A DNA stretch of 64,000 nucleotides from Octopus vulgaris (lineage: Eukaryota), in assembly GCA_951406725.2 (NCBI GenBank), contig OX597819.1, positions 69,564,001-69,628,000 of the forward strand. Direction: 5' to 3'. A program made the position numbers and the translations under genes. The notes below the pieces were generated by a model. The model ran no database searches, was not told the DNA's origin, and was given only the letters and a program-made list of their open reading frames with translations. Of the stretch, positions 18,345 to 60,677 are shown piece by piece (position 1 is the first letter of the stretch; the number at the start of each line of letters is the position of its first letter).

Positions 18345-19082
18345 CGTAAAGTATACTATACATCTCAATATGGCTAACCTCTAGTGTTACAGTAGCTTTT
18401 TAGCCCCAGGAGATCATCGTCTCCAGCTGGCTTTAGACACAATTTCTGTGCACTTATGATATTTGCAAAGGGAGGTCATCCTGCAGTTTCGAGATTATTG
18501 TCTCTCGTCAACACACGCTAATCACCGGTTTTCGATGAGGAGAGACCTGTTTGCGAATATCTATTTAATGTTTTTCCCAGTAACCACTGTCACTGATTTC
18601 GAAAAATGGTCTGAAAGCTACAGTAACACCCACCCCTAGTGGTTAGCCATATTTAGATGGCTAGTATACTTTACGTTGTTGAGCGCTTACTGTTTACATC
18701 ACATTCAGAGATTTATTATTGCTTTCAGACTGTTTTTCGAAATAAGTGACAGTGGATACTGGGAAAAACATTAAATAGATATTCGCAAACAGGTCTCTCC
18801 TTATCGAAAACCGGTGATTAGCGTGTGTTGACAAGAGACAGTAATCTCGAAACTGCAGTCCATGCGTATCACTTAGGTTTTCGAGAGGGGATGACCTCCC
18901 TTTGCAAATATCATAAGCGCACAGAAATTGTGTCTAAAGCCAGCTGGAGACGATAAACTCCTGGGGCTAAAAAGCTACAGTAACACCCACCCCTAGTGGT
19001 TAGCCATATTGAGATAGCTAGTATACTTTACGTTGTCGAGCGCTTACTGTTTACATCTCATTCAGAGATTTATTATTGCTTT
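18345..19082. mobile_element. Retrozyme-like element, 357-bp unit: + arm of ~1.3 units (18614-19082) joined head-to-head with an inverted arm (18345-18618)
   Basis: aaagctacagtaacaccc at 18614 and 18971; long inverted identity; flanking ctttgtctattga (18332-18344) / ctttgcctattga (19079-19091) look like a TSD. Confidence 0.85.
18821..18867 (+). ncRNA. Type I hammerhead, U3-A8 core variant
   Basis: gcgtgtg TTGACAA gaga-cagtaa-tctc GAAA ctgcag TC catgcgt; 7-bp stem I with G-U pairs, palindromic stem III ACTGCAGT, GUC site. Confidence 0.8.
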
Positions 19083-19235
19083 GCCTATTGAGTTTGAATG
19101 CTATTTAAATCAGCTCTGACTTTCATCTATCAATGGTCGATCAAATGAAGTAACAAGGACGTACTTGTGTCGTTGTAATCAGCTACAGCCCTCCACGCAA
19201 AACCACTGGCCTTGTTTAAAACAGAGTCTGTTATT

Positions 19236-19622
19236 CATTTTTACTCTAGGCGCAAGGCCCGAAATTTTGGAGGAGGGACCAGTAGATTAGATCGGCCCCA
19301 GTAGGCAACTGGTACTTAATTTATCGACCCCGAAAGGATGAAAGGCAAAGTCGACCTCGGCGGAATTTGAACTCACAACGTAAAGACAGACGAAATACCT
19401 ATTTCTTTATTACCCACAAGGGGCTAAACACAGAGGGGACAAACAAGGGCAGACATAGGTATTAAGTCGATTACATCGACCCCAGTGCGTAACTGGTACT
19501 TAATTTATCGACCCCGAAAGGATGAAAGTCAAAGTCGACCTCGGCGGAATTTGAACTCACAACGTAACGACAGACGAAATACTGCTAAGCATTTCGCCCG
19601 GCGTGCTAACGTTTCTGCCAGC
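19236..19622 (-). mobile_element. SINE family A dimer with 18-bp TSD
   Basis: Two modules; aaaacagagtctgttatt (19218-19235) and aaaacagaatctgttatt (19625-19642). Confidence 0.9.
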
Positions 19623-20212
19623 ACAAAACAGAATCTGTTATTAGATCGGTAGGAATGTGTTGTTCAACGCACGTACCACACGCGACGCACACGCGCATTC
19701 ACAGCTATACAGGCACATTGACACATACATCCATACTAACAGACACATATGCACACGGGTATAATTATGTGTATATGGATGTATGTACAACTGTAGATAT
19801 GTGTGTGAGTGTGTATGTTTGTGTGTGTATTTGTCTTCCTATATGCACATAGATACATGTATGTATACACACACATATAGACACACACACACACACACAT
19901 TTATTTATGTATGAATGTATACACACCAGCTTTCCATCAATTTTATTTGTACTTACATATGTAATAAGGAATAAAGTGCAGATGTATATGCCCGTTACTC
20001 ATATATATATATACATTCACACACACATACATATAAACACACACATATGTATAAAGTGATCGTGTGATTGGCAAAAATAGAGGACGTTGTTATACATCGC
20101 TGGCCACAATGCCTTTTGCATCGTTTTACACTTCGAATGATGGCACCCCGCTGGCTATGCGATATATGTGTGTGTATGTGTGTACATATATACACACAGA
20201 CACGCAGTTAAA

Positions 20213-20305
20213 TAGATAGATAGATAGATAGATAGATAGATAGATAGATAGATAGATAGATAGATAGATAGATAGATAGATAGATAGATAGATAGATAGA
20301 TAGAC
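20213..20305. repeat. (TAGA)n microsatellite
   Basis: Directly visible. Confidence 0.98.
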
Positions 20306-58296: not shown

Positions 58297-58755
58297 ATAT
58301 TTTCCAATGCATTAAAGCGGTGAACAGGCAGAATGCTTTGCGATATTCTGTCCGTCTTTACTTACAGGTCAAATACCGCCGAAGTCTACTTTGCCTTTCC
58401 TCCTTTCGGGGGGTCGATAAATGAGTGCCAGTTAAGTACTGGGGTCGTTGTAATCGTCTTACCCCCTCCCCTTAAATTGCTAGCCTTGTGATAAAATTTG
58501 AAAGCTATATTTTCCAATGCATTAAAGCGGCGTGCAGGCAGAAACGTGAACACACAATGCAAAATGCTTTGCGGTATTTCGTCCGTCTTTATTTTCTGAG
58601 TTCAAATACCACCAAGGTCGACTTTGCTTTTCATCTTCTCGGGGTCGATAAAATAAGTACCAATTCAATGCTGGGGTCGATGTAATCGTCTTAACCTCTG
58701 CCCCTATATTGCTGGCCTGGGACCGAAATTTGAAATCAATATTCACCAATGCATT
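58297..58755 (+). mobile_element. Two head-to-tail SINE family A copies separated and flanked by a 17-bp repeat
   Basis: atattttccaatgcatt at ~58298 and ~58508; atattcaccaatgcatt at ~58739. Confidence 0.8.
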
Positions 58756-59619
58756 CTTTATCATAAACTTCTAATCATGAACTAAGTTTTCCTTCCTTTA
58801 TTTGTTAACAGTTTCGGCAACATTATCCTCAACAACACTGTTCTGCCAACATTCTTACTTTATTTATAACTACAGACACAGTCATCAAGAACCGATTTTC
58901 AATTCATTGAGATACCTGCCTGACACGTACACTTTGCACTAACATTCTTAACTTATGGATTCCAGTTAGGATTTTAAACCAGTTATCTATCCAGAATATA
59001 TCTAATTAATATCTCATCGGTTTCATTTCCTCCTTGACAATTTCATTCGACTGTAGAAAAAACTACTGTTATCCTTTATTTTGATACTCTGTCGATTTAA
59101 AAGAACGTAATTTTAATTCCGCCATCTTTTTACAGTTATCAAAGTACGTTCCGTTTCAATCAACTCAGTGATGAACCTAGAGTGGTGTCACCTATTTTTG
59201 GTGCAGCATCGTCTTCTGTGGAATATTAAGCATTGATGATCCACAGATACTTAATTTTTTTTAAGTTTCAGATTATTTAAACGTTTGTAGCAAAGGTTTT
59301 ATTTTTGCTACTTTAAATAAATTTTTTTCATCACTTCCTCTTGCAGCAGCATACTCTTGTTCCCAATTCTTGATGATAAACTGTGAACTTGAAAAGAAAG
59401 TTTCCCAAATTAGGTCCATTTAGAAATATATATTTTCAACAAATCCAAGAAAAAATTTTTCAAATTTTGTATTTGTTATATCGGTTTCTTTTTCCGAACC
59501 GCCAAACAAGAAAGATGCAAACAAAACAACAATGGTTGTCAAAGCCCCCCCCCACACACATACATACATATATAAATATATATAATATATATATATATAT
59601 ATATACACACACACACACC

Positions 59620-59775
59620 CAATGAAATGCTGCACTGTTTCTGCCTACCATATTCACTTACAAAACATTGCATGGCCTGGAGCCATGGTGGAGGAACATG
59701 CCCAAGACGCCGGGCATTTGGGCAAAACCCAAAAGTATGTTGTTGCGGAGTGTGCTTTTTAGCCATGACTGCGCC
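59620..59775 (-). mobile_element. Diverged SINE family B head
   Basis: gtttctgcctacca.attcact.acaa...tgcccaag...tagccatgactgcgcc. Confidence 0.6.
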
Positions 59776-60547
59776 TACACACACCGACACACATGCACAG
59801 AATACACGCTTATATATGTGTTTATACATACGTGTATACATAGCATGCATGTATATATATATATACATACATGTTTGTACGTATTTATGTATACAAGTAT
59901 ATATGCAGGTATGTATGCATGTATGTATGTATTGTATGTACTGAGCTGCGTTTCTTTTCTCTTCCTTTCATAAGTCTCCCACTCGGTAATTGTCCCACCA
60001 GATCTAATCCATATCTGTATCGATTGATTCGATATATTATATCTGACTGGAAACTAATTCTTTCCCATAATAGTTAAATATCCAATATCGAACGCGGATG
60101 TAGTTGTTATTGTTGTTGCTGTTGTTGTTGTTGTTAATTCTGATGCTGCTGCCTTCATGCTTTTTTTATATCTTTTTTTTTTACTCTCTTATTTAATCTG
60201 CAGCAATTCTATTTTCTTAATATAGTCTCATGAATGAGATAAACTGAACACGATAAAAAAAAAAGGAAGGCAATATTTGTTGGCTTCGTTTAAACAGTCG
60301 CACATTACACAGTCACACAAACAACCACACACGCCAACATACACACACCTACATACACACAGAAATATACATTCACACATATACATGTGTGTGTGTGTGT
60401 GTGTGTGTGTGCGTGTGTGTGTGTGTGTTTACTTGCGTGTGTATCTGTATGTATAAGTTTACGCTTATGTTTGTTTTTCTGTTGAGTTATAATAAAAACA
60501 ATTTTACATTAACCTGATGGGTTGCTTTCTACTTTTGAAGAGTGCAA

Positions 60548-60677
60548 ATATAATGTTCTTAAGCAAGAAGGTTGGTGACAGTGACTTCGAAATTTCGACC
60601 AGTTAAGCCATCGTCGGTTGGCTTAACTCGCTGAAACATCGAAGTCACTGTCATAATCCTGTTTAAGAATATTTTGT
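60548..60677. mobile_element. Small head-to-head element of two 5'-truncated hammerheads
   Basis: - arm: CCGACGA tggc-ttaact-ggtc GAAA tttcgaag TC actgtc; + arm: tggc-ttaact-cgct GAAA catcgaag TC actgtc. Confidence 0.72.

Follow-up and report, generated by a model that had tools for sequence, protein, structure and literature searches.

The DNA analysed here (the window) is a stretch of 64,000 nt from Octopus vulgaris (assembly GCA_951406725.2, contig OX597819.1, positions 69,564,001-69,628,000 of the forward strand), and the coordinates below count from its first letter. Six inverted pairs had been predicted in it, at about 18.6k, 30.7k, 32.1k, 47.3k, 53.0k and 60.6k, and all six were found to be present. 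Their features are the following.

18332-18343: target-site duplication on the left of the 18.6k insertion, 12-13 bp long and differing from the right copy by one mismatch
18344-18618, minus strand: 18.6k short arm, fully within long-arm sequence, with deletions of 31 nt and 7 nt
18614-18618: junction overlap AAAGC, 5 nt
18614-19078, plus strand: long arm at 18.6k, holding 1.3 copies of a 357-nt unit, its tail reaching 45 nt past the end of the short arm
18828-18860, plus strand: decayed type I hammerhead with a palindromic helix III and a long stem I
19079-19090: target-site duplication on the right, starting with 4 bases that match the element as well (priming microhomology)
30498-30748, minus strand: 30.7k short arm, extending about 141 nt beyond the outer end of the long arm
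30744-30748: junction overlap AACAA, 5 nt
30744-31336, plus strand: long arm at 30.7k, holding 1.1 copies of a 539-nt unit and stopping at a (TA)n tract
31141-31205, plus strand: decayed hammerhead-like fold whose stem II is long (fold z for the region -5.05)
31470-32094, minus strand: long arm at 32.1k, holding 1.27 copies of a 491-nt unit, with its outer end in (TA)n
31602-31692, minus strand: type I hammerhead with intact core, in the 32.1k long arm
32092-32094: junction overlap ATA, 3 nt (4 nt when the other reference copy is used)
32092-32523, plus strand: 32.1k short arm, 432 nt, reaching 101 nt past the outer end of the long arm
32200-32290, plus strand: hammerhead with one helix III change, in the 32.1k short arm
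about 46826-47326, minus strand: 47.3k long arm, old, period about 430 nt, outer end uncertain and possibly near 46785
about 47324-47593, plus strand: 47.3k short arm, with a hammerhead core at 47370-47414
52950-53139: 53.0k spacerless palindrome, arms of about 95 nt (about 52950-53047 and 53042-53139), 84% alike
53038-53051: perfect centre of the 53.0k palindrome, 14 bp, including GAATTC at 53042-53047
60467-60673: 60.6k near-palindrome (paired arms 60552-60610 and 60619-60673), the left arm reaching about 60467 as judged by a solo copy at 22400-22537

In every pair, an inverted 5'-truncated copy adjoins the 5' end of the other copy, the arrangement typical of Penelope-like elements (PLEs). 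All six are head-to-head and no tail-to-tail pair was found in the window, as originally stated. Partial tandem copies were recognised at four of the six sites, with periods of 357 (18.6k), 539 (30.7k), 491 (32.1k) and about 430 nt (47.3k); the copies at 53.0k and 60.6k lack the length to reveal tandem units, and at 60.6k a LINE fragment at 60675 cuts the right arm. The pairs belong to six non-coding families, which gave no mutual match in a cross-comparison (E<0.01). Arm identity was highest at 32.1k (99%) and lowest at 47.3k (67-78%), five of the six pairs being at most about 92% alike. A further inverted duplication, with a repeated centre and without a hammerhead match, lies at 49893-50467.

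Target-site duplications, which had been put forward as a check, were found in part. A single duplication of 12-13 bp surrounds both arms of the 18.6k insertion, the only one of the six sites with such a duplication; 47.3k, 53.0k and 60.6k yielded none. At 30.7k and 32.1k, (TA)n flanks on both sides hide any duplication.

The claim that the hammerhead sense always points outward held at all six sites. At four of them it was read from a hammerhead scan, and at 53.0k and 60.6k, where the cores are decayed and scan-negative, by eye: each 53.0k arm carries a decayed minimal hammerhead and 60.6k allows a weak minimal-hammerhead reading. Scan scores were 15.5 and 13.5 for the two arms at 32.1k, 8.8 at 47.3k, 8.6 at 30.7k (one core mismatch) and 7.1 at 18.6k (two mismatches). 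As shuffled windows gave 0 matches at 10 or above, 1.0 at 8 or above and 1.75 at 7 or above per window, only the 32.1k matches exceed chance on score alone, the other sites being helped by their position within the arms. A type I hammerhead per unit is seen with an intact core at 32.1k and with decayed cores at 18.6k, 30.7k and 47.3k. No arm holds more than one core, and these partial-tandem copies fall short of the 'active' state of a retrozyme, which a 2026 preprint (bioRxiv 10.64898/2026.07.22.740005) defines as two units in succession at one locus, each with a complete hammerhead.

Rfam returned no hammerhead at gathering score over the window and none at E<=10 over 32.1k. In an E-value scan of the window, the 150 of 419 matches listed were all to microRNA families and, where aligned, lay on microsatellites. 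Local folds of the motifs at 47.3k, 53.0k, 22.5k and 46.7k were not above shuffles, and no tRNA genes were found. When 87 reading frames (86 of the 142 unmasked frames of at least 55 aa, plus one more) were searched against Pfam, the only matches were RVT_1 at 41518-42396 and zf-RVT at 27342-27719, both outside the arms; no PLE ORF or GIY-YIG domain was found among these frames, and no PLE ORF was linked to the units. Further copies numbered 0 in viral contigs and 0 in prokaryote genomes. The sole metagenome match (L001) is 23 nt long, lies in DNA of 49% GC and was rejected as a chance resemblance.

The arms of the 32.1k insertion are not nested: each carries sequence absent from the other, with 3 differences in 566 compared positions. 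The 5' start of the long arm lies 0-2 nt from the predicted ribozyme cut. The unit is low in GC, highly self-paired (z -4.98) and a high-copy repeat across its entire length. Contigs aligned to it showed a very abundant, tandem and heterogeneous family in all four sequencing runs. At 11 of 11 chosen variable sites both arms have the same letter and share a minority haplotype; in each of the four runs, 96-100% of the contig depth at position 31957 goes to the letter that the arms do not have. Among the joints listed for these contigs, some go back from 32091/32094 to 31607-31612 (runs X1, X10 and X2) or from 32086 to 31627 (X2 and X3), and none changes strand, a result that is neutral on polarity bias. 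About half of the unit's words occur in runs guessed to be RNA, in which contigs cannot show ends or circles.

Junction overlaps had been claimed at four sites. Three of them, AAAGC, AACAA and ATA, stood when compared with second element copies, the left-arm overlaps at 18.6k and 30.7k being read jointly with the inverted-pair alignment. GAATTC was rejected as testable microhomology: it is merely the middle of a 14-bp spacerless palindrome, and every spacerless inverted repeat possesses such a centre. At 47.3k an overlap of 2-3 nt, absent from the original prediction, is possible. Compared with random expectation, overlaps of 5+5+3 nt gave P(sum>=13)=1.5e-4 for the three junctions and 0.006 for all six with zeros included, in support of the proposed microhomology.

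The statement that the arms end at different 3' points was borne out at 18.6k (45 nt), 32.1k (101 nt) and 30.7k (about 141 nt); the ends are about equal at 53.0k, and at 60.6k the comparison is cut by the LINE. Nesting is ambiguous at 47.3k, where the offset of about 45 nt is uncertain. At 30.7k the arms are not nested either way, less securely than at 32.1k. The variable ends had been expected to support circular templates. The eight outer ends were clustered and not scattered round the unit: all map downstream of the predicted ribozyme cut, at +131 to +272 nt (P ~0.0014 against a uniform distribution, post hoc), as fixed PLE initiation sites would give. A circle with random priming was rejected as unsupported.

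Taken together, these observations are consistent with six separate insertions in each of which a PLE protein nicked both target strands and primed two cDNAs on copies of the same tandem transcript, a reading to which we give about an even chance. Each nick would prime one cDNA, and the two cDNA ends would join at a few complementary bases before host fill-in. The head-to-head polarity would follow, because both cDNAs start on the 3' side of the element and grow toward its 5' side. The architecture supports the PLE-type origin first suggested. Two separately primed cDNAs joined by short complementarity, also part of that suggestion, gain support from the non-nested arms at 32.1k (less securely at 30.7k), from the duplication at 18.6k and from the in vitro activity of PAc: this predicted dimer has two start sites and can both nick and extend each of the two strands (PMC11167929). 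The haplotype common to the 32.1k arms agrees with priming from both nicked strands, too. In published work, AT-rich DNA is the target nicked by PLE protein, and extension of the two strands starts at internal sites of the RNA, between which a tail lies. We infer that a PLE protein was the maker, that both arms came from one event, probably from two RNAs in most cases, and that microhomology annealing and host fill-in closed the joint. The evidence comes from one window and six pairs. The two arms at 53.0k, and likewise at 60.6k, begin at almost the same point; cDNAs truncated independently of each other would seldom do so, and this counts against the model. In addition, the right end at 30.7k and the left end at 32.1k face the same (TA)n tract, so that later end loss could mimic non-nesting, above all at the old 30.7k insertion.

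The original prediction had set aside classical twin priming on the ground that it would not duplicate sequence. This exclusion fails because the template is tandem: a second nick priming upstream on the same multimeric RNA also yields overlapping arms, tandem units mimicking duplication. The 18.6k insertion fits, the 5' start of its short arm mapping 4-5 nt from the priming end of the long arm (gap 353, period 357), and at 32.1k the long arm begins at the predicted ribozyme cut, a natural RNA 5' end, and one haplotype is common to both arms. The twin-priming model also includes cDNA annealing at microhomology (PMC2912911). However, only one of the four asymmetric sites has a tight joint (P ~0.18, not significant), and only one of eight arm starts lies at a predicted cut (P ~0.09, not significant). 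At the other three asymmetric sites (47.3k by hand), one continuous RNA would need arm gaps of 160-344 nt or an overlap of about 110 nt, far exceeding the medians for twin priming of L1, 14.5 bp for deletions and 22 bp for duplications (bioRxiv 2024.08.27.596794); at 32.1k that RNA would have to span about 2.5 units and keep two ribozymes uncut. We regard priming twice on one RNA as improbable. We judge no more favourably, as a general account, a fold-back in which a strand bends back onto a short complementary stretch or palindrome within itself and serves as its own template. Such self-priming from palindromes has been proposed for PLE inverted junctions (PMC3846280), and small-hairpin inverted duplications are known at L1 ends (bioRxiv 2024.12.14.628481). 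The 14-bp perfect palindrome at 53.0k and the arms offset by a few bases at 60.6k are in its favour; these near-symmetric joints suit the published self-priming model at least as well, and fold-back may well explain them even if not the other sites. The nested 18.6k pair is compatible with either twin priming or fold-back as well, and the shared haplotype at 32.1k fits fold-back and one-RNA priming equally well. Nevertheless, a fold-back demands that the second arm lie inside the first, which is untrue at 32.1k and 30.7k unless later losses removed 101 and about 141 nt, respectively. Nor was an inverted host flank, named beforehand as the mark of a generic fold-back duplication, found at 18.6k, where the flank is readable.

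That a second element inserted at a different time, in or beside the first and in opposite orientation, is far harder to credit. PAc is able to nick its own pLTR (PMC11167929) and the 32.1k family is very abundant, but one duplication encloses both 18.6k arms, no leftover of a split first copy lies beyond a second arm, the two 32.1k arms have a minority haplotype in common, each pair is of a single family despite the presence of six, and no pair is tail-to-tail. Least credible of all, by a little, is a generic inverted duplication by replication template switch, or an assembly chimera. The duplication at 49893-50467 shows that such events occur in this DNA; against this, arms end at element ends without host flank (at 18.6k, where readable), and the 32.1k unit, from one of the two families checked for copy number, is high-copy over its whole length. 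Read chimeras are excluded by the divergence of five of the six pairs.

Returning to two cDNAs primed at both nicks, the head-to-head layout is the typical published signature of PLEs and is ordinary for them. An inverted 5'-truncated copy with a tail is described in Penelope/Poseidon, Neptune, Nematis, Naiad and Chlamys (PMC8557442, Fig. 2) and in Pen2a_Av and Pen3a_Av (PMC3846280), and the predominance of head-to-head pairs is already in print (PMC3846280). As in PLEs, the inverted copy adjoins a partial tandem, the junction shows an overlap or a palindrome (15-bp overlap in Pen2a), a putative tail lies at one end, targets are microsatellites and the repeat bears a hammerhead. The insertions differ from PLEs in having no ORF and in that the unit is succeeded by itself at four sites. 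The target duplication is 12-13 bp (18.6k) against 8-10 bp in PLEs, and the end offsets of 45 (18.6k), 101 (32.1k) and about 141 nt (30.7k), the latter two (TA)n-flanked, and of about 45 nt, uncertain, at 47.3k, compare with a PLE tail of 30-40 nt. The origin of the tandem and inverted structures of PLEs is "still undefined" (PMC8557442), self-priming being the sole explicit model that we found in print (PMC3846280). The novelty here is a modest mechanistic clue, namely that the non-nested arms at 32.1k, and less securely at 30.7k, are hard for a simple fold-back. In short tandem retrozyme-like copies, nesting, the gap modulo the unit and shared haplotypes can discriminate between fold-back, one-RNA and two-RNA priming, given a good assembly.

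The units also resemble animal non-LTR retrozymes (PMC7229834; bioRxiv 10.64898/2026.07.22.740005): both are non-coding, tandem, low in GC and self-paired, with a type I hammerhead and duplications of more than 4 bp. Those elements are proposed to derive from PLE pLTRs, and have units of about 170-400 nt against 357-539 nt here. The inverted head present here is not described for retrozymes in the consulted passages of the two sources. It links these non-coding repeats to PLE enzymes through the insertion footprint, beyond sequence kinship. More tentatively, as a serious possibility short of an even chance, the inverted head of PLEs might in general reflect a dimeric PLE protein priming both nicks on two RNAs rather than fold-back; hammerhead retrozymes, bearing the same signature, would then provide direct insertion-site evidence of PLE mobilisation from linear ribozyme-cut multimers. 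With L1 twin priming (PMC2912911; bioRxiv 2024.08.27.596794), the insertions would have in common that both nicks prime, that cDNA ends anneal at microhomology and that the polarity is 5'-to-5'. However, L1 uses one RNA, primed at its poly(A) and, spuriously, at an internal site, and leaves short deletions or duplications only, whereas the arms here start in a common initiation zone and have hundreds of bases in common.

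All six inverted pairs of the original prediction were present in the window. They are named here by junction position (18.6k, 30.7k, 32.1k, 47.3k, 53.0k and 60.6k), and each consists of two arms joined head to head. Since the arm sequences did not match one another, six families are represented. At four sites, the long arm contained more than one unit, with a period of 357 nt (18.6k), 539 nt (30.7k), 491 nt (32.1k) or about 430 nt (47.3k).

The window was scanned with a purpose-made type I hammerhead descriptor; the traits of minimal hammerheads were checked against PMC4209133. 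At a score of at least 6, 10 matches were obtained versus 3.0 in shuffles, and at a score of at least 10, 2 versus 0. Five of the ten lay inside arms (two at 32.1k, one each at 47.3k, 30.7k and 18.6k), all oriented outward from the junction; the remaining five lay at 3815, 10128, 13340, 38397 and 53713, and chance alone should yield about three matches. The outward sense proposed for all six sites was seen by the scan at four, and at 53.0k and 60.6k it was read by eye only, in decayed minimal cores. None of the six pairs' hammerheads in the window was scored by Rfam, 32.1k being searched at a lenient E-value. No tail-to-tail pair of such elements was found in the window; under equal odds, and for sites picked by the prediction itself, this gives p=0.016 for 6 versus 0 and p=0.06 for 4 versus 0. 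Three further single-arm copies carry hammerhead-like motifs:

22400-22537, minus strand: copy of the 60.6k family, with microsatellites on either side and no inverted partner
46672-46775 and 52656-52759, minus strand: two copies of a seventh family, 77% alike, in which a motif resembling a minimal hammerhead was recognised by eye

Both seventh-family copies lie directly left of a listed pair. A short imperfect palindrome (3584-3652, 81%) has a hammerhead-like match nearby (3781-3815, minus strand, score 8.1, chance level).

The window (35.5% GC) is microsatellite-rich, about one quarter being masked, and has the character of animal nuclear DNA, with a resemblance to that of cephalopods. No open reading frame of a Penelope-like element (PLE) was found among the 87 frames scanned in it. 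Other repeats were as follows:

41518-42396: LINE reverse-transcriptase fragment (RVT_1, frame of 293 aa) within a decayed LINE, 40839-42656, minus strand
27342-27719: LINE fragment (zf-RVT) within a decayed LINE, 25836-27719, minus strand
60675-61365, plus strand: decayed LINE fragment truncating the 60.6k right arm
10689-11269, 12349-12537, 16152-16389, 19232-19625, 22990-23238, 23363-23452, 25212-25402: SINE-like copies
32842-33251, 36174-36393, 49288-49519, 53404-53647, 57259-57625, 58297-58755: further SINE-like copies

The LINE pieces at 25836-27719 and 60675-61365 are related, zinc-finger-bearing and 78% alike. The SINE-like family, with about 13 copies in the window, has a unit of roughly 180-230 nt that is repeated internally; it includes several partial tandems and no local inverted pair. 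An inverted duplication at 49893-50467 (about 290 nt, about 95% alike, 16-nt spacer), outside the predicted set, contains no hammerhead match. The sequence at its centre occurs again beyond the right arm (~50470), and its appearance is that of resident DNA duplicated by a template-switch fold-back. Terminal inverted repeats at 53945-54328 (about 70 nt, 81% alike, 240 nt apart) likely mark a MITE or DNA-transposon relic, and 36377-37022 is a minisatellite (period about 74 nt, about 90% alike).

Microhomology had been proposed at four joints. With a second copy of each element as reference, the bases common to both arms amounted to 5 nt at 18.6k (18614-18618), 5 nt at 30.7k (30744-30748) and 3-4 nt at 32.1k (32092-32094). 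When random positions of the same units were joined head to head, the mean was 0.7-0.8 nt, and P(sum>=13) was 1.5e-4 when three junctions were counted and 0.006 when all six were. The fourth proposal, GAATTC at 53.0k, was rejected as a testable microhomology: the arms meet here in a palindrome that has no spacer and a perfect 14-bp centre, so the motif arises by construction, and scoring it would require another copy. There may be an overlap of 2-3 nt at 47.3k, and at 60.6k the arm starts are offset by a few bases. As for target duplications, both arms of 18.6k lie within a single one of 12-13 bp with one mismatch (18332-18343, 19079-19090); 30.7k and 32.1k have (TA)n at either end, and none was found at 47.3k, 53.0k or 60.6k.

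The whole 32.1k unit was spanned by contigs from four DNA-like sequencing runs of four studies, one of which (X1) may be the source sample; summed depths were 1e5-4e6, which is not a copy number. The contigs contained tandem joints and numerous variable sites, and none of their best-supported joints changed strand. At 11 of 11 variable sites, selected for frequent disagreement between reads and window, both arms carried the window's letter, and therefore derive from one source haplotype. This argues against insertion of the arms at different times and fits one RNA as well as two. Scans of metagenome, viral-contig and prokaryote-genome collections returned no true copies of the elements.

If one strand had copied itself by fold-back self-priming, the second arm would have to sit inside the first, because fold-back copies the first strand. 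This is the case at 18.6k, and the near-symmetric 53.0k and 60.6k also fit, as they would fit two cDNAs meeting at a built-in palindrome; 47.3k is ambiguous. At 32.1k, however, the arms (3 differences in 566 compared positions) are not nested: upstream, the long arm reaches 294 nt beyond the short one, and downstream the short arm reaches 101 nt beyond the long one. At 30.7k, the short arm extends about 141 nt beyond the long one, although later loss is possible there, since the copy is about 90% alike and the long arm ends in a (TA)n tract that also ends the 32.1k long arm. Fold-back is considered unlikely overall, but may well account for 53.0k and 60.6k. Twin priming had been excluded on the ground that it would not duplicate sequence; this fails because, on a tandem template, twin priming of one RNA (model described in PMC2912911) also yields overlapping arms. 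One arm should then start about where the other was primed, the L1 medians being 14.5 bp deleted and 22 bp duplicated (bioRxiv 2024.08.27.596794). The 4-5 nt overlap at 18.6k agrees with this. The other three sites depart from it: 32.1k shows a gap of 160 or 256, 30.7k an overlap of about 113 or a gap of 344, and 47.3k a value of about 110 or 190, estimated by hand. One fit in four sites has a chance of 0.18. This route is considered improbable as well.

Priming from both target nicks, each of which would use a separate copy of one transcript, is ranked first, and we give it an even chance; one-RNA twin priming and fold-back follow, and the six sites need not share a common route. In vitro, the PLE protein PAc, a predicted dimer with two start sites, cuts and extends both strands of its target (PMC11167929). 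Counted downstream from the predicted ribozyme cut, the outer ends (those away from the junction) lay at +173/+218, +131/+272, +132/+233 and, roughly, +134/+179 nt, all inside a band of 141 nt. Uniformly placed ends would give this with P ~0.0014, a post hoc value that includes the rough 47.3k positions. Variable 3' ends thus do not support circular templates as had been proposed; the band suggests fixed initiation zones rather than priming at random points of a circle. One of the eight arm starts, that of the 32.1k long arm, falls 0-2 nt from the predicted cut (P ~0.09), a hint that the template was linear and cut by the ribozyme.

With the exception of GAATTC, the observation is real, and the architecture, carried here by non-coding units that resemble retrozymes, is the known PLE signature. 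PMC8557442 gives as characteristic of PLEs a partial tandem whose 5' end bears an inverted, 5'-truncated copy, with a tail of 30-40 bp at one end or the other; it also notes a microsatellite bias and terms the mechanism undefined. According to PMC3846280, inverted PLE repeats (pLTRs) occur with duplications of 8-10 bp, their joints show palindromes and an overlap of 15 bp, head-to-head is the commonest arrangement, and self-priming is the mechanism put forward. Animal non-LTR retrozymes are defined and connected to pLTRs in PMC7229834 and bioRxiv 2026.07.22.740005, whose main texts, in the portions available, make no mention of inverted heads. No explicit dual-priming model for PLE inversions was found in a search of mostly open papers that left aside older Penelope work. 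The structure is ordinary, yet it turns an acknowledged open question, that of PLE inverted structures, into a countable one. The initiation zones suggested by the outer ends resemble the fixed zones of PAc, a PLE protein studied in vitro (PMC11167929).
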